A stretch of 64,000 nucleotides of DNA from Candidatus Eiseniibacteriota bacterium (GCA_963707915.1 OY970178.1:224001-288000); one strand, 5' to 3'; shown: positions 973 to 34,886, numbered from the stretch's first letter. Notes: generated from the sequence alone by a model not told the origin. Numbers and translations are program-made.

Positions 973-1646
973 CGCGGCCCGGCCTGGAGCTCGAGCGCGC
1001 GGCCGAGGTGACGCACGAGGATCGCGCCGGCCTCGCCGACGCTGGGGCCGAACGTGAGCACGCCGTCCTCGTGGCCGCCCATGACGAGGATCCCCAACGC
1101 GGCGAGCGGTCCGTCGCGGTGGAGCCGCTGCACCTCGGCGGCCATCTCGGGCGTGCCGTTCTGCGCGCCGTCGCGGGTCGCAGGCAGGCCGAGGGCCCGC
1201 GCCCCCCGCCAGACCTCGGGGGCGTGGGCGTGGAGCACCGCCCGCGCCGCCGGGGCGATGTCGTAGAGGGCGCCGTGGGTGAGCGATTCGGACGAGGGCG
1301 CCACCGGCCCCGCGCTGCGCACGCGGTTGCGCGCGGGGTCGTATTCCTCCACCACGCAGAAGTCGGCGAGCGTGAGCTGGCGCCGTCCGCCGGTCTGCGT
1401 GCCGGTGACGAGGAAGCGCCGCCGTCCGCGCGGCGCACCGCCGAAGGGGCCGAGGCGCGCGCTCACGTTGCCGTAGCCGAGGCCGCCGTAGCGCGCCGGG
1501 TCCTGGCCGAGCATCCCGAGCCGGGCGAGGATCTCGCGCCACGCGGCCAGCGCGCGCACCGCCTCCGCGTGCACGCGCTCCTCGAGCGGGCGCGTCTCGT
1601 GAACGGCCTCGAAGCGGATGACGCCTTCTGTGCGCGGATCGGCCAT
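969..1646 (-). CDS. Class II aldolase/adducin family protein (MtnB-like)
   Basis: GYGNVSAR, FLVTGTQTG, PSSESLTHGALY, VLHAH and MGGHEDG motifs; coupled to mtnA. Start at ATG 1646 or GTG 1655. Confidence 0.85.
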   Translation of the reverse strand: MADPRTEGVIRFEAVHETRPLEERVHAEAVRALAAWREILARLGMLGQDPARYGGLGYGNVSARLGPFGGAPRGRRRFLVTGTQTGGRRQLTLADFCVVEEYDPARNRVRSAGPVAPSSESLTHGALYDIAPAARAVLHAHAPEVWRGARALGLPATRDGAQNGTPEMAAEVQRLHRDGPLAALGILVMGGHEDGVLTFGPSVGEAGAILVRHLGRALELQAGPR

Positions 1647-1715
1647 CACCGGCACGTTAGCATCGGGTCCCGCCGGCGGCCAGCCGGTGGCCGCCTCGAC
1701 GCCGGGGTCCCGGCG

Positions 1716-2327
1716 CTACTCGGGGTCCCGGCCCGCGTCCGCGGCGTCCGCGACCGCGGGAGGCTGCTGCTGGCACTCGGCACAGAGCTCGTCGGCGAGC
1801 AGGAAGTCGGGATGCTTGCGCAGGAAGACCTGCGCCTGGGCGAGCGGGTCGGAAGGCTCGCGGTGGGTCCCGCAGCCCGGGCACAGCGGCAACATCGCGC
1901 GCAGCTCGACGAGCTGGGTGGCGTCCTCCAGCGCGACCAGCACGAGGTCGCGGCCGCCGAGGCTGACCGGCGAGGCGCTGACCTGGAACCAGCAGTCCTC
2001 GGGCTGTCCGTTCGCCTGCACGAGCATGTGTGCCAGGCGGCGCGGCGCCGGCCTCCCCGCCGCCGCCGCCTCGATCGAGCGCCGCACCAGGCAGGACGGG
2101 CAGAAGTCGGTGGCGCCGCATTCGCCGCGGGAGTCGCGCGGGAAGATGCAGTGGACCGTGCTTCCGAGCGGCTTGCCCAGCCTGGCTTCGCCCCGGTCCC
2201 CCAGCCACAGCCGGGCCGCCCGGTTCGCCTCCAGGATCGTCGCGGCGGAGTCCACGATGAATGCCATCGAGGGGATCGCATCGAGCAGCGCGAGCTGGCT
2301 GGAGCCTTCGGGCAGCAGGGGTTCCAT
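1716..2327 (-). CDS. PAS-domain protein with C-terminal Cys-rich (LPLCPGC...LCAEC) module
   Basis: LLDAIPSMAFIVD...ILEANRAA PAS start, internal CGATDFCPSC, C-terminal CxxC...CxxC; probable start MEPLL at 2327. Confidence 0.7.
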   Translation of the reverse strand: MEPLLPEGSSQLALLDAIPSMAFIVDSAATILEANRAARLWLGDRGEARLGKPLGSTVHCIFPRDSRGECGATDFCPSCLVRRSIEAAAAGRPAPRRLAHMLVQANGQPEDCWFQVSASPVSLGGRDLVLVALEDATQLVELRAMLPLCPGCGTHREPSDPLAQAQVFLRKHPDFLLADELCAECQQQPPAVADAADAGRDPE

Positions 2328-2475
2328 GGAGGTGACCTCGGAGCGCGCAGCATCAGGGCGGCGTTGCGGGAACCAGGCTCGGTTGTCGGACTCCCCCGGG
2401 AACGGGCGCTCGAGCTCCGAGATTGACGCAAGCCTGCCACAGGCGCGGACCGCAGGCAAACCGCGCGACCGGCCG

Positions 2476-3754
2476 GGTGATGTACCAGTGTTTGTGTCAG
2501 GGACAAGGAAGGGGGTACTCCAACAGAGGCAGGGCCAACCACCTCAAGGAGGTACCCCCATGCAGCAGGTCGCTGCGGTGCGCAGTGTGAAGCAGGCGGT
2601 GCGGATGCTCAAGTCGATGGCGGTGCAGGCGCCGGAGTGGAACGAGCTGAGGCAGGCGAGCCAGGCCGCGGTCCGGCGGGTGATCGAGGAGCGGATGCAC
2701 GGCCTGGTGGGCAACCGGATCGCCGAACTGGCCGCGGCCGGGGTCGCTGACCGCCGCAATGGCAGCTACCGCCGCTGGCTGTGGCATGAGGTCGGCGTCC
2801 TGGAGTTGCAGGTGCCACGCTCCCGGACCTACAGCGCGGTCGCCGTGCTGGGCCGCTATGCCCGGCGGGTGCCCCAACTCGAGCGGGTGATCCTGGCCGG
2901 CTTCGTCCTCGGGCTTTCGACCCGCAAGGTGGGCGAGGCGCTGCTGCCCCTGCTGGGCGAGCGGGTCAGCCCGGCGACGGTGAGCCGGGTGGCGCGGGGC
3001 CTGGATGAGGCGGCCGCCGCGTTCCATCGTCGCCCGCTCGCCAACCGTTACCGGGCCGTGCTGCTCGATGGCGTGGTGCTGGCCCGCAAGAGCGGCGCCG
3101 GGGCGTTGCGCCGGCCCGTGCTGGTGGCGCTCGGGATCACGCTCGCCGGGAAGAAGGAGATCCTCGACTTCCGCCTCGCCCCGGCCGAGAGCCAGCCGGC
3201 CTGGGAGGCGTTCCTCAACGATCTCTATGCCCGCGGGCTCACCGGCGAGGGCCTCACCCTGATCGCCACCGATGGCGGTGCCGGTCTGCTCGCCGCGCTG
3301 CCGCTGGTCTACCCGCGGGTCCGGGTCGGCCGCTGCTGGGCCCACAAGACCCGCAACATCCTCGACAAGGTGCGAGACACCGACCGCGAGCGGGTCAAGC
3401 GCGACCTGCACCGCATCAGCCACGCAGTCAACCGCACCACTGCACGAGCGGCCGCCCGGCACCTGGTCGACCGCTGGCACACCCGCTACCCGGCCGCGGT
3501 CCGCTGCCTGCAGCAGGACCTCGAGGACCTGCTGGCGTTCTTCGCCTTCGACGATTCCGCCTGGCGCCAGGCCACCCGCACCACCAACGCCATCGAACGC
3601 CGCTTCCGCGAGGTCCGCAGAAGAACGCGCCCCATGGGGGTCTTCAGTGACCGCACCTCCATGGAGCGCATCCTGTTCGCCGTCTTCACCTACGAAAACC
3701 ACAAGGCCGGAACCTCAGCCCCCTTCCTCCTGACACATGACTCTTGACGCTACC
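2476..3754 (+). mobile_element. IS256-family insertion sequence, 1279 bp
   Basis: Imperfect 26-bp terminal inverted repeats (GGTGATGTACCAGTGTTTGTGTCAGG at left; reverse complement of right end GGTAGCGTCAAGAGTCATGTGTCAGG); 8-bp direct repeat ACCGGCCG at 2468-2475 and 3755-3762. Confidence 0.9.
2560..3747 (+). CDS. IS256-family (Mutator-type) DDE transposase
   Basis: RNGSYRR, GLSTRKV, LLDGV, ATDG, RCWAHK and RTTNAIERRFREVRRR motifs; AAGGAGG RBS before ATG 2560. Confidence 0.93.
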   Translation: MQQVAAVRSVKQAVRMLKSMAVQAPEWNELRQASQAAVRRVIEERMHGLVGNRIAELAAAGVADRRNGSYRRWLWHEVGVLELQVPRSRTYSAVAVLGRYARRVPQLERVILAGFVLGLSTRKVGEALLPLLGERVSPATVSRVARGLDEAAAAFHRRPLANRYRAVLLDGVVLARKSGAGALRRPVLVALGITLAGKKEILDFRLAPAESQPAWEAFLNDLYARGLTGEGLTLIATDGGAGLLAALPLVYPRVRVGRCWAHKTRNILDKVRDTDRERVKRDLHRISHAVNRTTARAAARHLVDRWHTRYPAAVRCLQQDLEDLLAFFAFDDSAWRQATRTTNAIERRFREVRRRTRPMGVFSDRTSMERILFAVFTYENHKAGTSAPFLLTHDS

Positions 3755-9993: not shown

Positions 9994-12115
9994 GCGCACG
10001 CTTCGGCGCGCGGCGGCGGCCACCCCCGGGCTCCGGAGGTGGCCGCCGCGTCACCGGCGCGGCCTGGAGTCCCGCCGCTAGTCCAGCACCACCGCGCTCG
10101 CCGACGTCACGCGTCCGGCCTGGCTGAGGCGGATCACGTAACGGCCGGCCGGGACCCGGCGGCCCGCCGACAGGTCCACCGCGTGCCGCCCCGCGCCGAG
10201 CGAACCGACCTCGCGCCGGGCCATGCGACGCCCGCCGACGTCGAAGAGCTCGAGCTGCGCCGGCGCCGCGGAGGGCAGGACGAACTCCACCGACAGCCGG
10301 CCCCGTGGGCTCGGATTGGGCCGCGCGCCCCCGAGGGCGAACTCGAGCGCGCCGACCTCCACCCAGGCCTCGCCGAAGAACAGGTGCACGCCGGCGTCCA
10401 CGACGCCGAGGCAGTAGCCGTAGCGGCGGCCGGCCTGCACCGCCTCGTCCACGAACCGCAGGTAGCCCGAGCCGTCGGTGGAGACCGCCGCGATCGGGGC
10501 CCAGTCGGAGCCCTCGGTGCGCCGGTACACCGTGGCGTCGAGCGCCCCGCCCGCCGGCGCGAACCAGGTGAGCTCGGCACGGCCGGAGCGCGCGATCGCC
10601 GCGACCAGCGAGGCCAGCGTGGCGACCGGCGCGCCGGGCGAGACCACGGCGGTCCGGCTGCGATTCCCGTGCAAGTCCACTGCCACGAGCTTGTAGTGGA
10701 AGTCCCCGGTTCCGTCCACGAACGACGTGTCGCGCGTGGCGGCCACGAGGTTGCCGCTCCCGGGGACGAAATCGGCCGTGGCGCCGCGGTAGAGTCGGAA
10801 TTCGAGCAGGTCCTCGGCGGGACTGGGGCCCCAGTGGAGCGAGGTCGACGCGCCGAGGTAGGCGGCGACGAAGGGGACGGGCAGCGGGGGCGCGAGGTTG
10901 TCCACGGAGTAGCCGCTGTCCACGTTGGATTCGTAGAAGACCGTCGCGCTCGTGGTCAGCGCGGTGACGAAGAACGCCGTGAAGGGGTTGGAGCCCGGCA
11001 TCGAGTCCTGGGTGGTGGCGGCCGTGTACCCGTAGCCGGCGAGCTGTTCGGCGGGCAACGTGGCGATGGCCTCCCAGTACTCGATCGCCGCCGCGCCGGA
11101 GCCGGTGCGCCCCGGCATGGCGCGCACCGTCGCCTCGCCCGCGCTCCCGGCGCGTGCCCGGGCCTCCGCGGCGGCCTCCGGCGGCAGCCGGCGCCAGACC
11201 CGGTAGCCGCTGACCAGCGCGATCCCCGCGGTGTCGTAGGAGGAGCGCGTCCAGCGCAGGAACACGCGGCCGCCCTGGTCGTTGGGCACGTCGCGCACCG
11301 AGACGAGGTGCGGCAACCTCGGGTCCGGACCCGGCACCTGGCAGCTCGCGAGCAGGATGCTGATCTCGCCGGCATCGCTCCAGCCCGAGACCAGCAGGTC
11401 CTGGGCGCCGTCGCCATCGAGGTCTCCGGTCGCGAGGCCCAGCGGGAAGGGAGACACGGGATAGCTGGAGTGGACCGTGAACGTGCCGTTCCCGACCCCA
11501 CCGGCGCCTCCGCCCTTCAGGACCACGACGTTGTCGCCAGTGGCGTCGGTGAAGACGAGGTCGGCGATCGCGTCTCCGTCGAAGTCGGCGGCGACCACGC
11601 CGCCCACGTTGGCCAGGCCAGCGGCGTAGGCCGTGGGCGTGCCGAAGGTGCCGGCCGCGCCGCCCTTGAGGACGGTCACGCCCCCGTAGCTGGAATTCGA
11701 GACCGCCAGGTCCAGGTTGCCGTCCCCGTCGAGGTCGCACAGGGTGACGTCATAGGGCTGAGCGCCGGCAGCGTAGTGCTGCGCGGTCCCGAAGGTGCCG
11801 GTGCCCTGGCCGAACATCACCGCCACGCCGTTGAAGCTCTCGGTCGCGACCAGGTCGAGGTGGCCGTCGTGGTTCAGGTCCCCCGCCGCGATCCCCACCG
11901 AGATCCCGGCGAGCGGGTAGGTGACCGGGGTGGCGAAACTGCCGTTGCCGACGCCGCCACTGCCCAGGCCGATCAGCACCGAGAACGCCTTGACGGCGTT
12001 GTTCGCGACGGCGAGGTCGAGGATGCCGTCCTGGTTGAAGTCCCCGGCCACCACCTCGTAGGGGCCGGGGCCCGCGCCGGAGCTCACGGCGGCCGCGAAC
12101 GTGCCGTCGCCTAGG

Positions 12116-13176
12116 TGTGGAGTCTCAGGACGTTGTTCTCACCCGGGGTCGCAACCGACTGAAGGGTGGTAGGCCGTCCAGACTACCGTGTGGACGTCTC
12201 TGGTTGTAGTAGCGAAGCCAGCGGGGCAGGACGCGGGCCCGGACCTCGGAGGTCAGGTAGGCGGCCCCGTAGGCCCACTCGCGGATCAGGGTCTGGATGA
12301 AGCGCTCGGCCTTGCCGTTCGTCCTCGGGCGGTAGGGCCGCGTACGTTTGTGGACCAAGCGCAGCCGTTCCACCTCGTGAGCAAAGCAGCGCGCGAGGTA
12401 GCCCGAGCCGTTGTCACTGAGGATTCGGCGGATGCGGATGCCCAAGGTGCGGAACCAGGCCACAGCACGACGCAGGAACGCTGCCGAGGTCACGCCGGTC
12501 TCGTCCCGCAGCACCTCGGCATAGGCGATCCGGCTGCGGTCGTCGATGGCGACGTGCACGTAGTCCCAGCCCACCCGATGACCCCGTCGCCGGCGGTCTC
12601 CGGTGATGCGGTGACCGTAGAAGCCACTGATCCGCCCCAGTTTCTTGACGTCGAAGTGGAGCAGGTCCCCCGGGCGACGATGCTGGTAGCGGTTCGCGGG
12701 CTCCTGCGGCTCGAGCTTCTGGAGCCGTTCCAGCCCGGCGCGTTTGAGCACCCGCGCCACCGTTGCCCGCGGACGCTTCAGGTCCCGGGCGATCTGCGGC
12801 CCGGTCATCCTCGTGCGCCGCAGCAGCAGGATCATCTCCCGCCATTCGATCGGGGTCGCGTGGGGGTGGCGCCGAGGCCGCGAGCTGCGGTCCTGCAGGC
12901 TGGCCGAGTCCTCGGCCTGGTAGCGGCCCAGCCACTTGTGGGCCGTCCGGCGGCTGATCCCTGCGGCCGTGGCCGCTCGGGTCACGCTCCAGCCCGACTC
13001 CCGTACCCGGCCAACAAGCAGTGCTCGACTGGCAGGGCAGGTCCGTGCTCCACTGTGGAGGTTCATCCGGGGTTCCTCGCTGGTCAGACGTTGACGGCTT
13101 CGAACACCACCAACATCTGTCAGAAGGACCCCGGTTGAACAGTCTCAACCTGTGAACAACCTAGTGAGACTCCACA
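12116..13176 (-). mobile_element. IS481-family insertion sequence, 1061 bp
   Basis: TGT...ACA ends with inverted repeat TGTGGAGTCTCA/TGAGACTCCACA; 6-bp target duplication CCTAGG (NCTAGN type) at 12110-12115 and 13177-13182. Confidence 0.93.
12125..13066 (-). CDS. IS481-family transposase
   Basis: MNLHSGAR N-terminus, HTH, PGDLLHFDVKKLGRI, HVAIDDRSR, LSDNGS, TRPYRPRTNGKAERFIQT, YNQRRPH. Confidence 0.95.
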   Translation of the reverse strand: MNLHSGARTCPASRALLVGRVRESGWSVTRAATAAGISRRTAHKWLGRYQAEDSASLQDRSSRPRRHPHATPIEWREMILLLRRTRMTGPQIARDLKRPRATVARVLKRAGLERLQKLEPQEPANRYQHRRPGDLLHFDVKKLGRISGFYGHRITGDRRRRGHRVGWDYVHVAIDDRSRIAYAEVLRDETGVTSAAFLRRAVAWFRTLGIRIRRILSDNGSGYLARCFAHEVERLRLVHKRTRPYRPRTNGKAERFIQTLIREWAYGAAYLTSEVRARVLPRWLRYYNQRRPHGSLDGLPPFSRLRPRVRTTS

Positions 13177-13805
13177 CCTAGGCCGTGAAGGAACCAGACC
13201 TTGCTGTCTCCCATGGTCGTCACGACCAGGTCGAGGTGGCCGTCTCCGTCGAAGTCGGCGATGGCGATTCCGACGGGATGGGGGCCGACGGTGTGGAACT
13301 GTGGCGGGCCGAAGGTGCCATCGCCGATGCCGCCGCTTCCGCCGCCGAGCATCACGGCGATCGTGTTGTTGACTCCGCCGTCCTGGGCCTCTGACTGGCA
13401 GGCGACCAGGTCCAGGATGCCGTCGCCGTTCAGGTCGGCGAGCTCCACGCGGTTCGTGCGAGTGCCCACGGCCTGCAGCGTCGCCGGAGCGAACCAGGCC
13501 GGCTGGTCGCAAGGTGCGGACGCGCTGCCCGTCGGCGACAGCAGGCCGGTGCCGGCGAGCAGGCAGAAGGTCAGGAGCGTGGCGATGGAATGGAAGATGT
13601 TCCGCATGGTCGGCCTCCGCGCGTTCAGGGACAGGGGCGATCCCCGCTGGTCACCCAAGTACAGCATAGGACCGGCGGGAGCCGTCCGAAACCGGATTCT
13701 CGGCGCTGATGGCGGGGAGGCACGTCCGGTCCCGGCTGCGGGCACGACCCCCGCCCACTAGTGTATATTCCGACAGCCCATGACCTTCCAACCGAGGCCC
13801 GCCGC

Positions 13806-15878
13806 ATGAACCCGGTCGCCGACTCTCCCGCGCTCCAGCCGCCGTCCGATCTCAACCCCCGCCCCGAGCCGGTGCTCGACTTTCCCGACCGCGAGCTGGG
13901 GGAGATGACGCCGGCGGACTACGACACGCTGGGCTTCATGTCGGGGCTCGAGGTCCACCAGCAGATCGTCACCCGCGGCAAGCTCTTCTGCCGCTGCCCG
14001 GCCGGCCGGCGCGTCACCCGGGTGGACGCCGAGGTGCTGCGCCACATGCGCCCCACGCTCTCGGAGCTGGGCGAGTACGACGGCTGCGCGCTGATGGAGT
14101 TCAAGACCCGCAAGGAGATCGTCTACCTGCTCGAGCGGGGCACCGTCTGCACCTACGAGATCGACGACACGCCGCCCTTCCCGATGGACGACGAGGCGGT
14201 GCGCGTCGCCCTCGAGATCGCCCTGCTCTTCGGCCTGAACCTGGTCTCCGAGCTGCACGTGATGCGCAAGCAGTACCTGGACGGCTCGATCCCGACCGGC
14301 TTCCAGCGCACGGCGATGATGGGGCTCGCCGGGAGCATCCCGTTCCGGGTGCCCGAGCTGGGGGTGGACCGCGAACTGCGCATCCGCCAGTACTCGCTCG
14401 AGGAGGACTCCTGCCGCGAGGTCTCCGACGTCGGGCACCGCATCACCTTCCGCACCGACCGGCTGGGGATGCCGCTGATCGAGACGGTGACCGAGCCCGA
14501 CCTGCTCACGCCCTTCGAGGTCGCGGCCGGTGGCCGCCTGCTGGCCCGCGTGGCGCGCGCCTCGGGCAAGGTGCGGCGCGGGGCCGGCGCGGCGCGCCAG
14601 GACACCAACGTGTCGGTCGCCGGCGGCCGGCGGGTCGAGATCAAGGGCGTGGGCAACCACCGGCACCTGCCGCTGCTCACGCACAACGAGGCCTTCCGGC
14701 AGCTGAACCTGCTGCGGGTCCGGGCCGAGCTGCGGCGCCGCGGGGTGAAGGCCGAGGCGCTGGCGGTCCCCGACGGGCCGCGGCCCTGGGAGCGCTCGCC
14801 GCTGGTCGTGCATGCGGGCCCCATGCTCCGGCGCTCCGAGTACATGCCGCTGCGCGAGGCGCGCGAGCGGGGCGACACGGTGGTGGCGCTGGCGCTGCCC
14901 GGCTTCGGCGGTCTGCTGTCGCGGCCCACGCAGCCGGGCGTCACCTTCGCCCGCGAGTTCGCCGACCGCGTCCGGGTGATAGCCTGCCTCACGGCGCGCC
15001 CGTTCATGATCCACTCCGACCTGACCGACTACGGCCTGACGCCCGCCGAATGGCGCGCGCTGCGCAAGAGCCTGCGCGCCGGGCCGGCCGACGCCACCGT
15101 GGTGTTGTGGGGCACCGAGCAGGACGTGGAGACGGCGGTGCGCGAGGTGTTCCTGCGCGCGCGCGACGCGCTGGTCGGAGTCCCGGCGGAGACGCGACAG
15201 TCGTTCTCGGACGGGACCAACGGGTTCGAGCGCATCCTGCCGGGAGCCGACCGCATGTACCCCGACACCGACACGCCGCCGAAGGCCATCCCCGAGGAGT
15301 GGGTGGTCGAGATCACCGCGCGCCTGTCCGAGCGTCCCTGGGTCCGGGAGGAGCGCTACCGCGCCCTCGGGCTGTCCGAGGAGCTGGCGAACCGCCTGGC
15401 GGTCGCCACCGGGACCGCGGACCTCTTCGACGCGCTCGCCGTGCCGGTCGGGCCGGCCGCGGCGCGCGTGGCGGGGGCGCTGCTCAAGCGCCCGGCGCGG
15501 TGGCGCCGGCGGCGGTCCGGAGAGGCGCCGGCCAGCGCGGAGCGCCTGCAGCCGCTGGTGGCGGCCTTCGTGCGGGGCGAGTTGCGGCCGGAGGGCTTCG
15601 AGCGCGCGATCGAGCGGGCGCTGGTCGAACCGGGGCGCACGGTGGTGGAGCTGATCGAGGCCGTGCGGCCGCGGGCGGGCGACGCCGAGGCGGCCGCCCG
15701 CAGCATCGCCGCGGCGGTCGAGCGCTGCGCCGGGCAGCCGGAGCGCCCGCGGTCGAGCCTGGTGCGCTGGACCATGGGGCTGGTGATGCGGGACCTGGTC
15801 GGGCGCGTGGATCCGCGCGAGCTGCAGGCGCGGCTCGAAGCGGCGCTCGCGGCCCGCGAGATCGGGGTGACGCGATGA
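13806..15878 (+). CDS. gatE: Glu-tRNA(Gln) amidotransferase subunit E (archaeal type)
   Basis: GLEVHQQ, KLFCRCP, RPTLSELGEYD, MRKQYLDGSIPTGFQRT, EEDSCR, DRLGMPLIE, RQDTNVSV, AspRS-like insertion (EFADRV...IHSD), PGADRMYPDTD. Start could be 13761. Confidence 0.9.
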   Translation: MNPVADSPALQPPSDLNPRPEPVLDFPDRELGEMTPADYDTLGFMSGLEVHQQIVTRGKLFCRCPAGRRVTRVDAEVLRHMRPTLSELGEYDGCALMEFKTRKEIVYLLERGTVCTYEIDDTPPFPMDDEAVRVALEIALLFGLNLVSELHVMRKQYLDGSIPTGFQRTAMMGLAGSIPFRVPELGVDRELRIRQYSLEEDSCREVSDVGHRITFRTDRLGMPLIETVTEPDLLTPFEVAAGGRLLARVARASGKVRRGAGAARQDTNVSVAGGRRVEIKGVGNHRHLPLLTHNEAFRQLNLLRVRAELRRRGVKAEALAVPDGPRPWERSPLVVHAGPMLRRSEYMPLREARERGDTVVALALPGFGGLLSRPTQPGVTFAREFADRVRVIACLTARPFMIHSDLTDYGLTPAEWRALRKSLRAGPADATVVLWGTEQDVETAVREVFLRARDALVGVPAETRQSFSDGTNGFERILPGADRMYPDTDTPPKAIPEEWVVEITARLSERPWVREERYRALGLSEELANRLAVATGTADLFDALAVPVGPAAARVAGALLKRPARWRRRRSGEAPASAERLQPLVAAFVRGELRPEGFERAIERALVEPGRTVVELIEAVRPRAGDAEAAARSIAAAVERCAGQPERPRSSLVRWTMGLVMRDLVGRVDPRELQARLEAALAAREIGVTR

Positions 15879-17263
15879 GCGACGATCGCTACAAGGGCTA
15901 CCGTGACCCCTGCCTGTCGGTGCTGAAGCGCTTCGACGTGACCGTGTGGTGCGAGCTGCGCGCCCGCACCACGCGCGGCGACTTCGAGGGCCTGCTGCTC
16001 CCGCGCTCGGAGACCGCCGACCCGCTGCACCTGGTGCTCAAGCTGCCGACCGGCTACAACGTCGGCCTGCGCCACGACACCGTGACCGGGCTCGAGAAGA
16101 TCGGCTACCGCGAGGCGCACTACCAGATCCCCGAGCGCCAGTTCCCGGTGAACCCCTCGATGCCGCGGGTGAAGCTGCTGGGCACCGGCGGCACGATCGC
16201 CTCGCGGCTCGACTACCGCACCGGTGCGGTCATCCCCGCCTTCAGCCCCGGCGAGCTCTACGGTTCGGTGCCGGAACTGGCGGACATCTGCAACCTCGAG
16301 ACCGAGAAGCTCTTCGGCGTGTTCTCGGAGAACATGGGACCGGAGCAGTACATCGTGCTGGCCGAGCGGATCGGCGAGGCCATCCGCGACGGTTGGGACG
16401 GCGTCGTCGTCGGCCACGGCACCGACACCATGCACCACACCGCCGCGGCGCTCTCGTTCATGGTCCAGCGCTCGCCGGTGCCGATCATCATGGTGGGCAG
16501 CCAGCGCTCCTCCGACCGGCCCTCGTCGGACGCGGCCCAGAACCTGATCAGCGCGACCTGGGCCGCCGCCCACGGTCCCATCGCCGAGGTCATGGTGTGC
16601 ATGTTCGGCCCGACCTCGGACCGCTACAACCTGCTGCACCGCGGCACGCGGGTGCGCAAGATGCACACCTCCTACCGCAGCACCTTCCGCACGCTGGGGG
16701 ACATCCCGCTGGCGATGGTCGAGCGCGGGAAGCTCACGCCGCTCAAGGAGGACTGGGCGCCCCGGCGCAAGGACCGCGAGGTCACGGTGCAGGCGGTGTT
16801 CGAGGAGCGCGTCACCATCGTCTACTACTACCCGAACATGAATCCCGACCTGATCGACGCGCTGGTGGAGAAGGGCTACAAGGGCATCGTCATCGCGGGC
16901 ACCGGCCTGGGGCACGTGAACCGCAAGATCTACCCGGCGCTCGATCGCGCGTGCAAGGCCGGCGTGCTGATCTTCATGGCGGTGCAGACGCTCTGGGGCT
17001 TCGTGCAGATGTACGTCTACGAGACCGGCCGCGAGATCCTCGAGCTGGGCGTCACCCCGCTGGCGAACATGCTGCCCGAGGTGGCCTACATCAAGCTGGG
17101 CTGGGCGCTGGGCGTGCATCCCGACGATCCCGAGGCGGCGCGGCGCCTCATGATCACGCCGATCGCCGGCGAGACCACCGAGCGCGAGCCGCACGACGGC
17201 TACCTGGTGTTCCAGGGAGGCGTTCCCGAGATCCAGGAGTTCCTGGGCAAGGTCTGGAAGTGA
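15875..17263 (+). CDS. gatD: Glu-tRNA(Gln) amidotransferase subunit D (asparaginase-like)
   Basis: GatD-specific N-terminal domain (LVLKLPTGYNVG), TGGTIASRLDYRTGAV, HGTDTM, GSQRSSDRPSSD, HRGTRVRKMHTS, GTGLGHV, MLPEVAYIKLGW; ATGA overlap with gatE. Confidence 0.92.
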   Translation: MSDDRYKGYRDPCLSVLKRFDVTVWCELRARTTRGDFEGLLLPRSETADPLHLVLKLPTGYNVGLRHDTVTGLEKIGYREAHYQIPERQFPVNPSMPRVKLLGTGGTIASRLDYRTGAVIPAFSPGELYGSVPELADICNLETEKLFGVFSENMGPEQYIVLAERIGEAIRDGWDGVVVGHGTDTMHHTAAALSFMVQRSPVPIIMVGSQRSSDRPSSDAAQNLISATWAAAHGPIAEVMVCMFGPTSDRYNLLHRGTRVRKMHTSYRSTFRTLGDIPLAMVERGKLTPLKEDWAPRRKDREVTVQAVFEERVTIVYYYPNMNPDLIDALVEKGYKGIVIAGTGLGHVNRKIYPALDRACKAGVLIFMAVQTLWGFVQMYVYETGREILELGVTPLANMLPEVAYIKLGWALGVHPDDPEAARRLMITPIAGETTEREPHDGYLVFQGGVPEIQEFLGKVWK

Positions 17264-17285
17264 ACCGACAAGGACGGATGGCCGC

Positions 17286-18728
17286 ATGAAGCCGACGACG
17301 ATGCCAGTGACCGAAGCGAGACCGGAACCGCAGACGGGGGGCACGGGGGCCGCGGCGCCGAGGTTGACGGCCTGCCTGCTCGAGCGCGAGATCGGCCGGC
17401 CGGCCGCGGCCTGGACGGTGGACGACCTGCTGGCGCTCGCCGCCGGGCGCGGCGTGCGCCTGGTGAGCCTGATGCACGTGGGCGGCGACGGCTGCCTCAA
17501 GGTCCTGGACTTCGTGCCGCAGAGCCGCGAACACCTGCGCGACATCCTCTCCGGGGGCGAGCGGGCCGACGGCTCGAGCCTGTTCGCCGGGCTCGGTCTC
17601 GAGGTCGGGGCCTCGGACATCCTGCTGCGGCCGCGCGTCGAGACCGCATTCCTCGACCCGTTCGCGGCCCAGCCCACGCTGGCCTTGCTGTGCGGACACG
17701 CGGGGCGCGACGGCGACAGCCTGCCCCAGTCGCCCGACACCATCGTGCGGCGGGCCGCCGCGCGGACGGCGAGCGAACTGGACGTCGACCTGCACGCGCT
17801 GGGCGAGGTCGAGTACTTCCTCGGCCGTCGCGCGGGCGAGGAGGACGCCTACGGCGCGAACGACCGCGGCTACCACGCCACCTCGCCGTTCGTCTTCGGC
17901 GAGGCGCTGCGGCGCGAGGCCATGGCCCTGCTGGCCGAGATCGGCGTGCCGGTCAAGTACGGGCACAGCGAGGTGGGCTACGTCCAGGCCACCGAGTCGG
18001 ACGGGTACATCTGGGAGCAGCACGAGATCGAGCTCGGGCTCGCCCCGCTCGCCGCCGCCGCGGACGCGGTGGTGCTCACGCACTGGGTGCTGCGCAACCT
18101 CGCCTACCGCGAGGGCATGCGCTGCAGCTTCGATCCGATCCTGCGCCGCGGTCACGCCGGCACCGGCCTGCATTTCCATTTCTCGCCGGTCCGCGACGGG
18201 GCCCACCTCGGCGGGCGCGGTGCGGACGGGACGCTGAGCGCGCCCGCGCAGTGGCTGATCGCCGGGCTGGTGCGCATGGGCGGGGCGCTGATGGCGTTCG
18301 GCAACCGCACCGAGGGCTCGCTCATCCGCCTCACGCAGGCCAAGGAGGCGCCCAACACCATCGTCTGGGGCGAGTTCGACCGCAGCGCGCTGGTGCGGCT
18401 GCCGATCGTGGCGACGACCACCGACGGCCGCGCGGTCAGCCCGCCGACCATCGAGTTCCGGCTGCCCGACGGTTCGGCCCACCCGCACCTGCTGCTCGCG
18501 GGCGTCGCCCAGGTGATGATCGAGGCGCGCTCGGTCGGGCACCTCGAGGCGTTGCTCGAGCGCACCTCGGTGAAGGCGCTCAAGCGCGGGGCCGGGACCG
18601 CCACGCCCGTGCCGACGCGGTTCCTGGAGGTGGCGCAGGCGCTCCAGGCGAGCCGCTCCGCGCTCGAGGCCGGCGGGGTCTTCCCGCCGGTGCTGCTGGA
18701 TCGGTTCATCGAGCGGTTGAGGGCCTGA
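17286..18728 (+). CDS. glnA: Glutamine synthetase family protein (type I-like)
   Basis: ERADGSSLF, GEVEYF, KYGHSEVG, EQHEIE, HAGTGLHFH, EAP, RSALVRLP, TIEFRLPDGSA. Confidence 0.8.
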   Translation: MKPTTMPVTEARPEPQTGGTGAAAPRLTACLLEREIGRPAAAWTVDDLLALAAGRGVRLVSLMHVGGDGCLKVLDFVPQSREHLRDILSGGERADGSSLFAGLGLEVGASDILLRPRVETAFLDPFAAQPTLALLCGHAGRDGDSLPQSPDTIVRRAAARTASELDVDLHALGEVEYFLGRRAGEEDAYGANDRGYHATSPFVFGEALRREAMALLAEIGVPVKYGHSEVGYVQATESDGYIWEQHEIELGLAPLAAAADAVVLTHWVLRNLAYREGMRCSFDPILRRGHAGTGLHFHFSPVRDGAHLGGRGADGTLSAPAQWLIAGLVRMGGALMAFGNRTEGSLIRLTQAKEAPNTIVWGEFDRSALVRLPIVATTTDGRAVSPPTIEFRLPDGSAHPHLLLAGVAQVMIEARSVGHLEALLERTSVKALKRGAGTATPVPTRFLEVAQALQASRSALEAGGVFPPVLLDRFIERLRA

Positions 18729-18785
18729 GGCGGCGGCGGGCCCGCAGCCCCGCGGCCGCGCGCCCCTCGGGGCGCCCGGGTCTGA

Positions 18786-18821
18786 ACGAAGACGGCCGGG
18801 CACGCGCCCGGCCGTCTTCGT
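18786..18821. terminator. Bidirectional terminator hairpin between convergent genes
   Basis: Perfect 16-bp stem ACGAAGACGGCCGGGC / GCCCGGCCGTCTTCGT with a 4-nt loop. Confidence 0.75.
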
Positions 18822-18838
18822 GAGCGTCGCGACGCGCC

Positions 18839-20190
18839 TCAGGCCTTGCCGGCCAGCGCCTCCTCGATGGTCGAGCAGTCCACCAGGCCGGCGCAGCCGT
18901 AGAGCACGGGCAGCAGCTTCGCGGGCGCGTGGCGGCGACGCAGGTCGGCGACCAGGTCGGTGCCGGCGCGGTAGCACGGCAGGTACATGCGCCCCATCAG
19001 CGGGTGCTTGCCCCACGCCCCGGCGAACTTGCCGGCGCGCTCCTCGGAGACCAGGAAGTCGCGCCGCAGCACCGGCGCCACCTCCTTCTCCGCCAGGCGC
19101 TCCTGCCACGTCAGGTACGAGGCCTGGTTCTTGGCGTCGTCCTGCAGCAGCGCCAGCAGCAGGCCGATCTTGAGGTCGTCGTCGGGGACCTGCTCCAGCT
19201 CGGTCACGCCGTGGGCGATGAGGATGGCGTTGTTGGCGATGCCCTCGGAGAGCGTGGCCCCGCGGGTGTTCATGGTGAGCACCGAGGCCTCGAAGCCGAT
19301 CTGCTTGCGCCAGTAGAGGTCCTGCAGGAACGCGAAGGTGGTGACGTGGCCGGGCACCACCTCGTGCGAGACCAACTGCTCGAACTCGGGCACCGTGATC
19401 TGGAGCGACGCGTTGATCTCGTACGAGGCCTCGTACTCCGGCCGGCCGCCGGGGCGGCGCTTGCGGCCCAGGTAGTTCATCGAGCCCGAGAACCATGCGT
19501 CCTTGATGGGCAGGAACTCGATGTTGTCCATCGGCACGTCGCCCATCTCGCTTGGCAGGAACGGGCGCAGGTTGCGCTCGGCCAGCGCGCGGTAGTGGGC
19601 GATGTAGGCGGCGCCGACCGACCGCACGCACGCCATCGGCACGTAGCGTGCGCCGCGCCAGGCGTCCACCGCGGCGAGCAGGTCGCGCGTCGCCCTTCGA
19701 CGGGTGGCCGACGCGGGCGAGCAGTTCCTGCACCTGGCCGCGCTTGGCCGCCGGGTCCGAGGGCGAGGGCGGCTGGCCGGTCGAGGCCAGCACGCAGCGC
19801 TCGTAGGGCACGGGCTGGCCCTTGCCGAGGATCTCCATCGCCAGGTCCCACATCACCTCGAAGCGACTCGGCCATCCCCGCGACGTAGCGCCCGCGCAGG
19901 CCGGGGAGCTCCTTCGCCTCGGCGCCGAGGGCGGCGATGGCGCCGCGCACGTCCACCGCGGCGAGGTAGGCCTCGATCGCGGCGCGGTCGGGCGCCTTCG
20001 CCGAGACCCCGCCGCCGTCGCGCACGGGCGCGGCGGTGGGGTGCGTGTAGGCGAGCGGCATGGGGGCGTCGGAGAACCACGAGTCGGCGATGAAGCGCCC
20101 CAGGCCGGAGGGGTTCATGACGTCGCCGCCCCACAGGGTGTCGATGCCGAGGACGGCGTTGGCGACGTGCTCGTCGAAGCGCTGGCTCAT
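18839..20190 (-). pseudogene. DUF885-like HExxPGH metallopeptidase-fold protein split by two apparent +1 frameshifts (possibly sequencing errors)
   Basis: GGAGG RBS and MSQRFDEH start; coding-like frame switches near 19860 (AESL to EVMWDL) and 19685 (KGDA to DLLAAVD); SHEVVPGH and LSEGIA motifs. Confidence 0.65.
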
Positions 20191-20389
20191 GGAGCCTCCT
20201 CGTGGCCGGACCCGGGGCGGCGCGCGCGGGCGTGGCGGGGCTGGATGGAATCGCGATCTGCGGTCGGTCCCACCCGCCGGTGGCGGGTGGTGCCCGGGCA
20301 GTCTAGCCCGGCCGGTTCGTGAACCGCCAGCGCGAGGCGCGCCCGCTGCCGCCCGGGGAGGTGGCGGGGTGGCCCCCGGGCGGCCCGGA

Positions 20390-20430
20390 GACACGAACGC
20401 GCCCGGACCGCTTCATGGGTTCGGGCGCGT
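20390..20430 (-). terminator. Terminator/attenuator-like hairpin downstream of the small leader ORF
   Basis: Minus strand ACGCGCCCG-AACCCATGAAGCGGTC-CGGGCGCGT followed by TCGTGTCT; TTCG(T) tail like other hairpins in the window. Confidence 0.5.
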
Positions 20431-28713: not shown

Positions 28714-31700
28714 TCAGAAGCCAGGTTGGAGCGAGAGCTCCCAGTACCAGCCCTGGCCGGGCCGGTCGTTGGGGTGGACCAGGTCGGCCTCGCCGATGGC
28801 GAAGCCGAACAGGTTGGCTCGCAGGGCGATGCCATAGCTCGTCACCGTCGAGCGTCGCGGGCCGAGGAAGGCGGGCTTGAACTCGCTCGTCCAGGCGGCG
28901 CCGGCGTCGAAGAATACCGCGGCCTCGATCGGGGGGACCGCCGGGGTGGGGTAGAGCCCGAGGGCCCCGAGCAACGGGATCCGCAATTCGACGTTGGCCA
29001 CGGCGAGCCGGCTGCCGAAGAGGCGATAGTAGACCGGCTCCACCGCGTCGTTGCTGTTGGTCACGTGGTTGCTGAAGGACGTGTAGTCGTAGCCGCGGAT
29101 CAGCCACGGGTCGCCGACGTACAGCGACGAGAGCCGCGGGTCCTCGGCCCCCGGGCCGTAGCGCCCGTAGTGGAGCGCCCGCCCGGCCAGGATGAGGGAG
29201 CGGCTCAGCCGCACGTAGCGCCGGTAGTCGGCGAGCGCGTCCCCGTAGTCGATGCTGCCACCGAGTCCCGTGACCTCGAAACGGTAGCGCTGGCCCATCA
29301 CCGGGCCGGTGCCCCCGAACACGCCGCTGTCGTGGACCAGCGCGACCCCGCCGCCGGCGAGGGTGAGGGACGGCGGATTGCCGTAGGGGTTGTTCACGGT
29401 CTTGTCGATGCTGCCGTTGTTGTCGTACGCGATGGTGCGGAGCCGGCTCGCGAAGGCGATGTTGCGCAGCCCGCCCGAGAACTCCACGCGCGAGAATCGG
29501 CTGAACGGGTAGGAGACGCTTCCCATCAGGGCGCGCTCGATCTGCCAGATCGTGAACTCGGAGTCCCGCGCGGTCTGGTCGAAATGGACCTGTTCCGGGT
29601 TGTAGTACTGCGTGATGTACGGGATCTGGCTGGCCTGCAGTCCCCAGTTCCAGCGCTGGCGCAGGTCCTGGTAGGCGACCGCCGCCGCGGTGTTGTTCAA
29701 CACGTTGCCGCCCACGTTGGTGACCTGCAGCAGGGTCACCATCTCGTGGTCGCCCAGCATGTCGCTCCAGTAGAGACCGGCGCCACCGCCGACGCCGACC
29801 CCGGAGGATCCGGCCGCCACCCCCAGGCTCGGCTGGGAGATGTAGTCGAGCGAAAGCCGCGGACGGTAGCGCGAGGAGGAGAAGCGCATGGTGTCCACCG
29901 CGGCGACGCCGACGCGGGCGGAGTCGGCCCAGGCGGCCCGGGGCCGTGGCGACGGCGGCAGGACCCCGGGGGCGCTCGCCGCGGAATTGCCGGCGGCCGC
30001 GGCGGCCAGCGAATCGCTCACCAGCGCGGACGCGACCGGCAGCGAGTCGCGCGCGGCGGACGGCACGGTGGCCGGCGCGGCGGCCAGCGAATCGCGCGCG
30101 GCGGAGAGCACGGTGGCCGGCGCGGCGGCCAGCGAATCGCGCGCGGCGGAGAGCACGGTGGCCGGCGCGGCGGCCAGCGAATCGCGCGGGATCCCCGCGA
30201 CGCGGCGCGCCTCGTCGAGGCGGAAGAGTTCGAAGTTGCCGGCGTCGTAGGCGCTGAAGACCACCTTCCCCGACCGGCGCGCGACCGTGAGGGCGGGGCT
30301 GAGGCGGGTGAGGCCCGACACGCCGGTCAGCAGGTTGGTGAGCGGCTCGATGCGGCCGCTCGCCAGGTCGATCCGGTAGAGGTCGGCGATCCCCTCGGGA
30401 TCTCCGACGAAGTACAGGCCGCGCCCGTCCGGGGTCCACTGGGGGTTGATGCTCTTGCCGGCCGGGAAGGTCTCGAGCGCGCGGATCGCGCCGCTCTCCG
30501 GGTCGATGGTCGCCAGGCGGTACTCGCCGTAGCGGGTGCTGTCCGAGACCGGACCGAAGCGGTCGGTGACGAACGCGATGGTCTTCCCGTCGGGTGACCA
30601 CGCGGGCTGCAGGTCCGCCCAGTCGTCGTGGGTGAGGCGCCGCGAAGCGCCGCTCTCGAGGTCGAGCACCCACAGGTCCGTCACGCCGTGCCCGAGCGCG
30701 GAGAAGGCGACGCGGCGGCCGTCGGGCGACCAGGTCGGATGGAAGACCTCGCCGAGGTCCGGGAAGGGCACGCGGCGCACGATGCGGCCACTCGCCATCT
30801 CCATCACCGAGAGCACCGGGCGGCCACGGTTCACGGCCGAGAACGCCAGGCGCGTGCCGTCGGGGCTCCACTCGCCGCCGGAGTTGACGAATCCCAGGTT
30901 CTGCATCTCCAGGTCCACGGTGCTGCGGGTGATCGCCCGCAGTACCTTCCCGCTCTCCGCGTCCGCGAGGTACATCTCGATCGACAACTGGCCGCGCTCC
31001 GAGAAGAAGACGATCTGCCGGCCGTCGGGGGAGAGCGCCGGTCCCAGGTTCATGCGGCCGCCGCCGTGCTTGGTGATCACGAGCGGGGTGGCGGCCTTGC
31101 GGATCGGCTCGGTCCGGCGGGCGAGCCGGCCCTCCCAGCTGCGCAAGGCCCGGTGCCACGACATGATGACCGAGTCGGCCGGCACGCCGAGCGTGCCCTG
31201 CAGCGCCTGGCGGACGTCACCCGAGCGGCCCGCCGCCTTCAGCAAGCGGGCCACGGCGTCCTCGCCGAAGCGGCCGGTCAGGTACGCCCACAGCGACTGC
31301 CCGTAGCGGTAGGGGAAGTAGCGCGAGTCCTCGAGCCGGCCGTACTTGGGGAGCCTGCCGGCCTGTGCCGCATCGCGCATCCACATGGCCGTGTGCGGGT
31401 CGTCGGCGCCGAGCGTCAGGTACTCGGCCATGCCTTCCATGAACCACAGGGGCAGCCGCGCGGCGGTGGTGAGCCCGAGGGTCTGAGAGCGGCCCTGGCC
31501 GACGACGTCGTACTGGAACGCGTGCACCAGCTCGTGGCCGATGACGTGGTCGGTCTCAGCGAGCGGACCGGCGAAGGGGACCACGATGCGGCGCTTGAGG
31601 GCCTCGGTCACGCCTCCCACGCCCTCGCCCAGGTCGCCGTAGATGGCGTTGGTCTGCTGGAAGGCCGGGTGGCTGGCGTAGAGGATCAGCGGCTGGCGGC

Positions 31701-31959
31701 GCGAGAGATCGTGCTGCAGGGCCTTCGAGATCCGCGCGTACCAGCGCTCCGCCATCCGCGCCGCCTCGGGCGCGATGTCCTGGGTCTCGGGGTAGTAGTA
31801 GATGTCGAAGTGCTCGGTCCTGAGCACCTGGAAGTCGAAGGCCTGGTAGCGGACCTTGTTCTGGCCGAAGTAGTCCTGGGCGCCGGCCAGCGGCGCGAGC
31901 ACGGCCGCCAGCGCGAGGCAGGCGATGAGCGGCGCGACCGGACGACGCCACGAAGACAT
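28714..31959 (-). CDS. Omp85/BamA-TamA family outer-membrane protein with N-terminal gluzincin peptidase-like domain and PD40 (TolB-like) beta-propeller
   Basis: Signal peptide, FGQNKVRY, HELVHAFQ plus WFMEGMAEY, repeated (W/L)SPDG, IRGYD, FFDAG and terminal LQPGF. Confidence 0.87.
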   Translation of the reverse strand: MSSWRRPVAPLIACLALAAVLAPLAGAQDYFGQNKVRYQAFDFQVLRTEHFDIYYYPETQDIAPEAARMAERWYARISKALQHDLSRRQPLILYASHPAFQQTNAIYGDLGEGVGGVTEALKRRIVVPFAGPLAETDHVIGHELVHAFQYDVVGQGRSQTLGLTTAARLPLWFMEGMAEYLTLGADDPHTAMWMRDAAQAGRLPKYGRLEDSRYFPYRYGQSLWAYLTGRFGEDAVARLLKAAGRSGDVRQALQGTLGVPADSVIMSWHRALRSWEGRLARRTEPIRKAATPLVITKHGGGRMNLGPALSPDGRQIVFFSERGQLSIEMYLADAESGKVLRAITRSTVDLEMQNLGFVNSGGEWSPDGTRLAFSAVNRGRPVLSVMEMASGRIVRRVPFPDLGEVFHPTWSPDGRRVAFSALGHGVTDLWVLDLESGASRRLTHDDWADLQPAWSPDGKTIAFVTDRFGPVSDSTRYGEYRLATIDPESGAIRALETFPAGKSINPQWTPDGRGLYFVGDPEGIADLYRIDLASGRIEPLTNLLTGVSGLTRLSPALTVARRSGKVVFSAYDAGNFELFRLDEARRVAGIPRDSLAAAPATVLSAARDSLAAAPATVLSAARDSLAAAPATVPSAARDSLPVASALVSDSLAAAAAGNSAASAPGVLPPSPRPRAAWADSARVGVAAVDTMRFSSSRYRPRLSLDYISQPSLGVAAGSSGVGVGGGAGLYWSDMLGDHEMVTLLQVTNVGGNVLNNTAAAVAYQDLRQRWNWGLQASQIPYITQYYNPEQVHFDQTARDSEFTIWQIERALMGSVSYPFSRFSRVEFSGGLRNIAFASRLRTIAYDNNGSIDKTVNNPYGNPPSLTLAGGGVALVHDSGVFGGTGPVMGQRYRFEVTGLGGSIDYGDALADYRRYVRLSRSLILAGRALHYGRYGPGAEDPRLSSLYVGDPWLIRGYDYTSFSNHVTNSNDAVEPVYYRLFGSRLAVANVELRIPLLGALGLYPTPAVPPIEAAVFFDAGAAWTSEFKPAFLGPRRSTVTSYGIALRANLFGFAIGEADLVHPNDRPGQGWYWELSLQPGF
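30041..30188. repeat. 45-bp intragenic tandem repeat (~3.3 copies) encoding RDSLAAAPATVLSAA
   Basis: Unit GCCAGCGAATCGCGCGCGGCGGAGAGCACGGTGGCCGGCGCGGCG repeated head to tail with no spacers. Confidence 0.9.
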
Positions 31960-33764: not shown

Positions 33765-34886
33765 GTGAGCACGGAGCATATCACCTGGGTGGGGCTGGAT
33801 GCCCACAAGAACTCGATCAAGGTGGCGGCCTTCTTGCCGGAGCGCCCCGAGCCCGTGGAGTGGACCGAGGCGACCACGGCGGAGGCGATCCGCCGACTGG
33901 CCCGCAAGCTCCAGCGCGAGGCCCCCGGGCGAGGTGCACTGCTGCTACGAGGCCGGCCCGACCGGCTACGGGCTGCAGCGGCAACTGCGCGCCGCCGGGA
34001 TCGCCTGCACCGTGATCGCTCCCTCGCTGACCCCGGTCAAGCCCGGGGTGCGGATCAAGACCGACCGGCGCGATGCGCGCAAGCTGGCCGAGTTGTTCCG
34101 GGCCGGGCTGCTGACCGAGGTCCACCCGCCGAGCGAGACGGACGAGGCCCTGCGTGACCTGTGCCGCTGCCGCGACGACGTCCGGGTGGACCTGCTGCGG
34201 GCCCGGCATCGGCTCAGCAAGTTCCTGTTGCGGCGCAACTGCATCTACCGGCAGACCAAGCACCACTGGGGCAGCGCGGCACTGGGCCTGGCTCGAGCAG
34301 CTGCGCTTCGATGACCCGATCAGCCAGGCCACGTTCGACAGCTACCTGCTGGCGGTCCAGCAACTCGAGGAGCGCCAGCAACAACTCGACACTCAGTTGG
34401 CCGAGTTTGGCGACCAGGAGCCCTACCGCGAGCCGGTGGCCTGGCTGCGCTGCTTCCGCGGCATCGACACGGTGACGGCGGTCTGCCTGGTGGCCGAGCT
34501 CCACGACTTCCGCCGCTTCCACTCGCCCCGGCAGCTGATGGCCTACGTCGGACTGGTGCCGAGCGAGTGCTCGAGCGGGGAACGCGAACGGCGCGGCGCG
34601 ATCACCAAGGCGGGCAATCGGCACGTGCGGCGCCTGCTGGTCGAGGCCGCCTGGCATCAACGCTTCCGGCCCGCATTGAGTGCCCCGTTGCGGCGCCGAC
34701 GCGAAGGACAGCCAGCCCGGGTGCTGGCCATCGCCGATCGGGCCCAGGAGCGGCTCTACGCACGCTACCGGCGCATGAGTGCTGTGGGCAAGGTCCGCGC
34801 CCAAGATCATCGTCGCCATGGCACGTGAGTTGACCGGCTACCTGTGGGCGGTCCTGCATCCGGCGGCCGCCGCCACCCGAGTCTGA
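33765..34886 (+). pseudogene. IS110-family DEDD recombinase/transposase with three apparent +1 frameshifts
   Basis: WVGLDAHK, CYEAGPTG, KTDRRDA, GIDTVTA, YVGLVPSECSSG, GAITKAGN and AMARELTGYLW lie in successive frames, switching near 33925, 34275 and 34800. Confidence 0.88.

Follow-up and report, generated by a model that had tools for sequence, protein, structure and literature searches.

The window analysed here is a 64,000-nucleotide (nt) stretch of a Candidatus Eiseniibacteriota bacterium, taken from positions 224001-288000 of a genome assembled as one contig (3,623,634 bp, 72% GC). At 13806-17263 it encodes both subunits of GatDE, a Glu-tRNA(Gln) amidotransferase that reviews treat as archaeal, and these genes are followed on the same strand by a member of the glutamine synthetase (GS) family:

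13806-15878, + strand: gatE (P0001, 690 aa), encoding the subunit for kinase/amidotransferase activity and tRNA binding; assigned by NCBIfam and Pfam profiles, alignment and an AlphaFold2 model
15875-17263, + strand: gatD (P0002, 462 aa), encoding the amidase subunit, which is of asparaginase type; assigned by NCBIfam and Pfam profiles
17286-18728, + strand: a divergent GS-family gene, 480 aa (P0003), beginning 22 nt after gatD with an AAGGA-like motif before its start

P0001 and P0002 are a true GatE and a true GatD, neither a GatB nor an ordinary asparaginase; model scores, tree and fold all place them so, which answers the grouping check proposed in an initial annotation of this DNA. P0001 passed the archaeal GatE model TIGR00134 (gatE_arch; 390.9 bits, cut-off 319.55) and fell 6.4 bits under the cut-off of NF003107 (449.6 versus 456), while the best GatB model gave it only 129.9 bits against a cut-off of 338. 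Whole-protein E-values at gatE and gatD lay between 1e-117 and 1e-146, far beyond chance, and the ATG at 13806 is backed as the start of gatE by the closest relative, P0004, which is also 690 aa long and 91% identical over 100% of its length. The Pfam GatB_N match was stretched across residues 46-500, compared with a profile of 277 positions, and the insertion absent from GatB is therefore present in P0001. Using HMMER, residues 38-670 were aligned with 9-616 of the 633 residues of Pyrococcus abyssi GatE (1ZQ1_C). These results bear out the initial description of a full-length gatE carrying the insertion. A relaxed Pfam search matched both accessory domains over their full length, below their cut-offs: GAD, the AspRS-like insertion, at 351-444 (17.4 bits, cut-off 23.4), and GatB_Yqey, the YqeY tail, at 573-681 (15.8 bits, cut-off 27). 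Both are recognised from the 1ZQ1_C alignment together with the fold. The structural model, built on a 50-row alignment (pLDDT 87.8, pTM 0.87), had 1ZQ1_C (E 2e-43, TMt 0.80) and 2D6F (TMt 0.79) as its best Foldseek matches; GatB chains ranked behind these (E ~1e-22), and AspRS gave only weak local matches.

The active site of GatE is intact. Its Mg ligands are H51, E199 and E226, which correspond in a HMMER alignment to 2D6F_C to His15, Glu157 and Glu184 of the Methanothermobacter thermautotrophicus enzyme; mutation of any one of the three is described in a passage of a 2008 review as abolishing both kinase and transamidase activity (PMC2330236). In an 88-row alignment the three residues were invariant in all rows of the bacterial clade (32/32), in the other GatE rows (51/51) and in GatB (5/5). 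Ninety-four columns were conserved at 92% or more in non-bacterial GatE, and the bacterial clade keeps 72 of these and alters 22, seven of the altered columns falling at GatE residues 369-409, in or beside the insertion.

The gatD start codon overlaps the gatE stop codon in an ATGA read directly from the sequence at 15875-15878, the coupling that had been claimed. P0002 passed both GatD models, TIGR02153 (gatD_arch; 486.7 bits, cut-off 324) and NF003217 (479.1 bits, cut-off 310), and scored lower with the type I asparaginase model (365.1 bits). The N-terminal domain and asparaginase motifs reported earlier are both there: Pfam finds GatD_N (PF18195), Asparaginase (PF00710) and Asparaginase_C (PF17763), and T107, T183, D184 and K262 are present in P0002 and invariant across it and 63 full-length bacterial GatD sequences (64/64). 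Across phyla GatD is 60-83% and GatE 39-76% identical, a conservation that indicates purifying selection. GatD and GatE may form the alpha2-beta2 complex; their genes overlap in the window and adjoin in 69 of 80 bacterial loci.

The co-oriented GS-family gene 22 nt past gatD went without mention in the initial annotation. P0003 has a Pfam Gln-synt_C domain (119.1 bits) and a Gln-synt_N match under the cut-off (29.4 versus 33.4), and when it is aligned to type I GS structures, 3NG0 among them, the metal, ATP and ammonium-site motifs DGSS, ExE, HxEV, QxE, HxH and NRSA..R are visible. In these respects it resembles type I GS (GlnA). It differs in lying under every NCBIfam GS cut-off, far under that of the GlnA equivalog TIGR00653 (137.7 versus 429.15), and in being a lineage-restricted extra copy behind gatD. 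A GS-family gene stood downstream of gatD in each of the three relatives fetched with flanks (G019, G004 and G025); elsewhere one lies directly before gatE (L065) or 3.6 kb upstream (L111). Orthologues of at least 65% identity were found in 12 of 41 relatives, including all six that bear GatE.

The locus is not rare: it belongs, with nothing to set it apart, to a large bacterial GatDE clade that databases annotate already. The 120 best database matches of GatE were 62-91% identical to it, the names given being those of Candidatus Eisenbacteria and Gemmatimonadota metagenome-assembled genomes (MAGs), and both NCBI and JGI already annotate these relatives as GatE, as the initial annotation had thought possible for other MAGs. 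Counting one genome per species, relatives were confirmed in at least 585 bacterial species genomes among at least 599 pattern matches; locus-level counts in this text use the best 80 of these confirmed relatives, whose MAG labels are Eisenbacteria, Gemmatimonadota, Krumholzibacteriota, Bacteroidota, Ignavibacteriaceae, Calditrichota, Aminicenantes, Acidobacteriota, Myxococcota and others. GatE was over cut-off in 6 of the 41 relatives (a set that includes the host genome itself and the unpublished G026, the latter without GatE). In a same-phylum sample of 151 genomes from 72 genera, searched at a threshold to which only the 4 archaeal genomes among 14 controls responded, GatE was present in 23 genomes and 14 genera. 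The rarity implied at the outset is contradicted by these counts.

The arrangement of the two genes is widely shared. In 69 of the 80 loci gatD follows gatE on the same strand, and once the unaligned GatE tail is allowed for, the gap between them is at most ~230 nt in 65 of the 69 and ~1-2 kb in the other four (L048, L044, L051 and L097), where there is room for an inserted gene. Eleven loci had no gatD match: in nine the contig ends within 174 nt of the gatE match, and in two (L059 and L107) 2-3 kb of sequence past gatE held none. A third conserved partner was sought in the 80 loci, and besides gatE, gatD and overlapping open reading frame (ORF) families no family occurred in more than 12; nor did any of 56 loci have a tRNA-Gln or tRNA-Glu gene near gatDE. 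In four Gemmatimonadales loci (L042:11508-13202, L044:12291-14003, L049:4292-6034 and L057:11475-13226) the gene immediately after gatD has the architecture of glutaminyl-tRNA synthetase (GlnRS), with the class Ic catalytic domain and both beta-barrel anticodon-binding domains, and those of L042 and L057 coincide with the over-cut-off TIGR00440 glnS matches of G043 and G060. Direct and indirect routes to Gln-tRNA would then share one operon in these loci.

The host genome itself has tRNA-Gln genes of the bacterial kind and a GlnRS gene (glnS) that scores 560.6 + 113.7 bits in a single frame. It also encodes GatA and GatB, each over its cut-off, asparaginyl-tRNA synthetase (AsnRS) and two glutamyl-tRNA synthetase (GluRS) genes (gltX), the second of which reads in four frames with three frameshifts in the assembly. 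The asparagine synthetase gene is split between two frames, and a second Gln-synt_C gene, at 2110462-2111013, is by our guess a type III GS. Both tRNA-Gln genes (CUG and UUG) begin with the weak pair U1-A72, and the archaeal A1-U72 is absent; tRNA-Asn is likewise U1-A72, and tRNA-Glu and tRNA-Asp are G1-C72. By eye, the D-loop of tRNA-Gln has 7 nt and that of tRNA-Glu is larger. Thus the search for gatCAB and glnS that the initial annotation advised returned gatA, gatB and glnS, its search for an archaeal first pair returned the bacterial one in both genes, and its idea of an archaeal Gln-tRNA route transplanted whole does not stand. The genes glnS, gltX, tRNA-Gln(CUG) and tRNA-Glu(CUC) lie head to tail at C1:318955-322551, 31 kb past the end of the window, and GlnRS and GluRS are close neighbours in several other GatDE-bearing genomes too. 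A tRNA-Sec (UCA) is predicted at C1:535918-536015, and the organism probably uses selenocysteine. Seven other ARAGORN predictions, GC-rich 'tRNAs' of 83-99 nt that lack CCA, seem to be false positives.

The history of bacterial GatE was approached with several trees. A FastTree analysis of 148 rows recovered a 66-row clade that takes in all named bacterial loci (support 100). We then compared 88-row trees under LG+G4, in which named archaea were added (Heimdall, Thor, Odin, Asgardarchaeia, Thermoprotei, Methanococci, Bathyarchaeota, Nezhaarchaeales, Verstraetearchaeota and one DPANN), five bacterial GatB rows served as outgroup, and the bacterial clade comprised 32 rows, 16 of them with organism labels. 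The quick tree made this clade (support 100) sister to Heimdall GatE (SH-aLRT 96) inside a 39-row group with Thor; it was not relied on. A search constrained to keep the non-bacterial GatE rows together in a single clade reached a log-likelihood (lnL) 47.6 units above the quick free tree (p-AU 0.904). The careful tree (lnL -84208), whose bootstrap was not fully settled, has a five-way base formed by (i) Heimdall, (ii) two unnamed rows, (iii) the Thor group, (iv) the bacterial clade (99/97) and (v) the main archaeal clade (44 rows, 92/100). We therefore set aside the nesting beside Heimdall seen in the quick tree, since the constrained tree is likelier and the base of the careful tree is five-way. 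In these alignments the monophyly and depth of bacterial GatE, and its proximity to Heimdall- and Thor-type sequences, are robust; a position inside archaeal GatE is not, nor, in consequence, is any conclusion on when and in which direction a transfer took place.

Of the old inter-domain transfer proposed initially, one deep bacterial clade stands, and the transfer itself is possible only, as the trees do not settle between a position nested beside Heimdall and one sister to all archaeal GatE. The competing account, that the bacterial clade is a pre-split GatDE lost in most bacteria, or that the Heimdall/Thor-type copies are bacterial-derived, with no import from Archaea in either case, strikes us as rather doubtful. 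It draws on the constrained tree, in which bacteria stand next to the GatB root with the better likelihood, on the careful tree, whose root falls in the five-way base that includes the bacterial clade, and on the proposal of GatDE in LUCA, the last universal common ancestor, by Sheppard and Soll 2008, as cited in a passage of PMC9499178. Set against these are the placement beside Heimdall GatE in the quick tree, a very long GatB outgroup branch (0.87 + 0.87) that makes long-branch attraction to the bacterial stem likely, the patchy occurrence within one phylum, and the mixing of bacterial labels inside the clade, which fits transfer. Trees of this kind do not yet separate an ancient transfer from descent from a GatDE older than the split. 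Within the bacterial clade, GatE of Bacteroidota (L074, L086 and related loci) has a very long stem branch (0.71-0.77 changes per column), and in many Bacteroidales loci the best tblastn segment reaches only the first ~500-530 GatE residues, their GatD being 60-66% identical; the stem and the short alignment show faster GatE evolution there, the tRNA-binding tail aligning least.

With moderate confidence, and judging from the sequences, we favour the view that the resident, bacterial-clade GatDE is a working tRNA-dependent amidotransferase that converts Glu-tRNA(Gln) on a U1-A72 tRNA-Gln, beside GlnRS and, in this lineage, coupled to an enzyme of the GS family devoted to it. GatD, of the asparaginase type, whose nucleophile is a Thr and whose triad is Thr-Asp-Lys, would free ammonia from glutamine or asparagine; GatE would bind Glu-tRNA(Gln), phosphorylate the gamma-carboxyl of the attached glutamate with ATP and Mg, and amidate the activated glutamate to give Gln-tRNA(Gln). 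The enzyme would act on the bacterial U1-A72 tRNA-Gln alongside GlnRS, not replacing it, either providing a second Gln-tRNA route or draining off the Glu-tRNA(Gln) that a non-discriminating GluRS produces. The amide donor, glutamine, is in this lineage most likely made from glutamate and ammonia by the product of the co-oriented GS-family gene. Four points of this view are inferred: what the substrate is, where Glu-tRNA(Gln) comes from, what the GS-family gene does and why, physiologically, two routes are kept. Neighbours of GlnRS architecture and of the GS family point to glutamine and tRNA-Gln, and amidotransferases, according to one passage of the 2008 review, use the weak first pair and D-loop features of tRNA-Gln (PMC2330236). 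A more specific version, in which an old, separate basal GatE branch (a pre-split survivor or the product of a very early Heimdall/Thor-like exchange) was re-tuned to U1-A72 tRNA-Gln and serves as a second route beside GlnRS, fed by its own GS, is offered tentatively.

Several observations weigh against a working second route. We profiled 20 other GatDE-bearing bacterial genomes, reached via their loci, for GlnRS, GatB, AsnRS and GluRS. GlnRS was over cut-off in 19 of them and in three pieces in the remaining one (G058), and none thus has GatDE as its sole route; AsnRS was found in 19 and GatB in six (five over cut-off). GluRS gave a single match in 12 of the 20, including all eight of G050-G057, with pieces of one gene in G046, G042 and G058, and since GatDE genomes mostly have a single GluRS, the supply of Glu-tRNA(Gln) is unproven. 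Of the host's two GluRS genes, one is interrupted by three frameshifts in the assembly. No step in the host needs GatDE, as GlnRS, AsnRS, GatA/GatB, an asparagine synthetase gene and the second Gln-synt_C gene are all present. Orthologues of the GS-family gene also occur in six relatives without detected GatE, and the patchy occurrence of GatE itself (6/41 relatives, 23/151 genomes of the phylum) indicates that it is dispensable. The tRNA-Gln lacks the archaeal A1-U72 identity pair and, judging by the sub-threshold GAD and YqeY matches and the altered columns, the tRNA-binding modules are the most diverged parts of GatE.

The second GluRS was also considered as a partner of GatDE and rejected. 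In the family to which the window belongs, a second GluRS copy is common whether or not GatE accompanies it, and 12 of the 20 GatDE genomes gave a single match.

Much of the evidence against a working second route could also be taken to mean that GatDE was repurposed, performing the same chemistry on another acyl-tRNA or tRNA-like substrate (Asp-tRNA(Asn), or Glu-tRNA outside translation) or serving nitrogen metabolism. GatDE is redundant with GlnRS in all 21 genomes when the host is included, and AsnRS accompanies it in 20 of these; 12 of the 20 others have a single GluRS match and 14 lack GatB; the domains that recognise tRNA have diverged most, and the archaeal first pair is absent; and the tRNA-Asn of bacteria is also U1-A72. 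We nevertheless think repurposing unlikely: conservation is strict in the catalytic core and throughout GatD, the GlnRS and GS-family neighbours indicate glutamine and tRNA-Gln, no biosynthetic neighbour is conserved (the largest other family reaches 12/80 loci) and no dedicated tRNA lies in 56 loci, and with AsnRS and an asparagine synthetase gene present the supply of asparagine does not require GatDE. That the pair is a decaying, non-functional relic is very improbable; it is redundant and patchy among relatives, and several other genes are frameshifted in the assembly, but gatE, gatD and the GS-family gene are all intact, the catalytic residues are invariant, GatD is 60-83% identical across phyla, and contigs from RNA libraries of close relatives cover the genes.

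Those contigs come from two metatranscriptome libraries of one study; they are 89-94% like the window and cover gatE, gatD and the GS-family gene, and one of 4.5 kb bridges gatD and the GS-family gene. They give a weak hint that the three genes are expressed in relatives, as contigs from RNA libraries may include DNA and a contig is not a transcript. Among the sequencing runs holding window-like sequence, word shares were all 0.14 or less. A scan of 13100-19000 for promoters and terminators found none, the scan being poorly suited to this phylum.

Although an IS481-family insertion sequence and a Mutator-family transposase lie upstream, an assembly chimera with archaeal DNA or a recent archaeal island is refuted by the single 3.62-Mb contig, by GC and third-position GC (GC3) matching the flanks, by synteny shared with a congener, and by nearest proteins that are all bacterial (62-91% identity, versus 31-37% for archaeal GatE in Foldseek alignments). 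The 14-18 kb bins have GC of 0.749 and 0.707 within a window range of 0.638-0.785, and GC3 is 0.96 in the gatE frame and 0.93-0.97 in neighbouring genes, in agreement with the initial remark that the locus resembles its flanks. Gene order in the congener G004 (S46 peptidase, GH77, gatE, gatD, GS, DUF885-like, SpoIIE) is common to the window, and GH77 directly precedes gatE in G003, G004 and G005. Two further features of the window bear on its setting:

12109-13183, - strand: IS481-family insertion sequence, bounding the locus upstream and outside the operon (transposase gene 12125-13066, with rve/LZ_Tnp_IS481 domains)
28714-31959: Omp85-domain protein, which supports the description of the host as a diderm

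The IS481-family element ends in inverted repeats of 33 nt, 88% complementary, and splits a surface-protein gene with FG-GAP and FlgD_ig domains on the - strand into N- and C-terminal pieces at 10078-12087 and 13161-13745; in this genome the split gene and the element stand between GH77 and gatE. The genome holds four full copies, 100% identical, and one partial copy of 402 nt, which suggests that the element was active recently. Insertion sequences are plentiful in the window: a Mutator-family transposase ORF lies at 1618-3747 and a fragment of an IS110-type transposase at 33799-34314. Its 32-34 kb bin has the lowest GC (0.638). Beside the operon, the DUF885-like gene (18839-20394, - strand) reads in more than one frame; the second gltX (C1:1918063-1919475, three frameshifts) and asnB (C1:1233486-1235232, two frames) are likewise broken, and G004 shows the same kind of frame breaks. 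Such genes reflect either long-read indel errors or real pseudogenes, and this bears on any argument from gene content for this genome.

Compared with the archaeal enzymes of known structure (M. thermautotrophicus 2D6F, with tRNA-Gln, and P. abyssi 1ZQ1), the bacterial pair has the same two subunits in the same domain order: cradle, AspRS-like insertion, helical domain and YqeY-like tail in GatE, and N-domain plus asparaginase fold in GatD. Bacterial and archaeal proteins share the Mg ligands and the Thr/Thr/Asp/Lys residues, align from end to end, and match in fold with a TMt of 0.79-0.80. The differences are that P0001 is only 31-37% identical to archaeal GatE in Foldseek alignments, with diverged insertion and tail domains and a place in a separate deep clade; that, in the 2008 review's account, A1-U72 is the determinant for archaeal GatDE (PMC2330236), as opposed to the U1-A72 tRNA-Gln here; and that archaea are reported in a passage of PMC9499178 to lack GlnRS genes, whereas this bacterial host has one. 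Unlike archaeal GatDE, the pair of this lineage also sits in an operon with a GS-family gene. Bacterial GatCAB carries out the same overall reaction, and its GatB, a GatE paralogue with the same Mg ligands, is encoded in this genome together with GatA. In a passage of the 2008 review, GatCAB is said to recognise U1-A72 and to reject tRNA-Glu on account of the D-loop (PMC2330236). GatCAB differs in that its amidase, GatA, is unrelated to GatD, GatC is needed, GatB lacks the insertion, and Asp-tRNA(Asn) is served as well. In Deinococcus, Thermus and Bdellovibrio the presence of GatCAB is explained by tRNA-dependent asparagine synthesis. These bacteria, according to part of PMC4206432, keep GatCAB despite having GlnRS and AsnRS, the same coexistence of direct and indirect routes as here. 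Their enzyme is GatCAB. The present genome, by contrast, has GatDE, whose archaeal form is Glu-specific, and it carries an asparagine synthetase gene.

A literature search, which did not cover subscription journals, found no title or abstract describing bacterial GatDE. One passage of the 2008 review calls GatDE an 'archaeal signature protein' (PMC2330236), and a 2021 review places it, in one statement, 'only in archaea missing AsnRS' (PMC8007984). Bacterial GatDE, annotated in databases and overlooked in the reviews consulted, is thus an under-discussed family, to whose other members the window adds little, save a clean, single-contig example of a gatE-gatD-GS operon. Reviews use the archaeal-only distribution of GatDE to argue the history of Gln-tRNA formation, and a large, deep and catalytically intact bacterial clade alters that premise. 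Bacterial GatDE coexists with GlnRS in every genome checked and must use a tRNA-Gln without the archaeal A1-U72, which raises the question of why two routes are kept and what supplies Glu-tRNA(Gln). If the bacterial enzymes do prove to be an old, re-tuned basal branch, the label of archaeal signature protein would be wrong, and the question of whether GatDE was present in LUCA, posed by Sheppard and Soll, would become testable with bacterial sequences.

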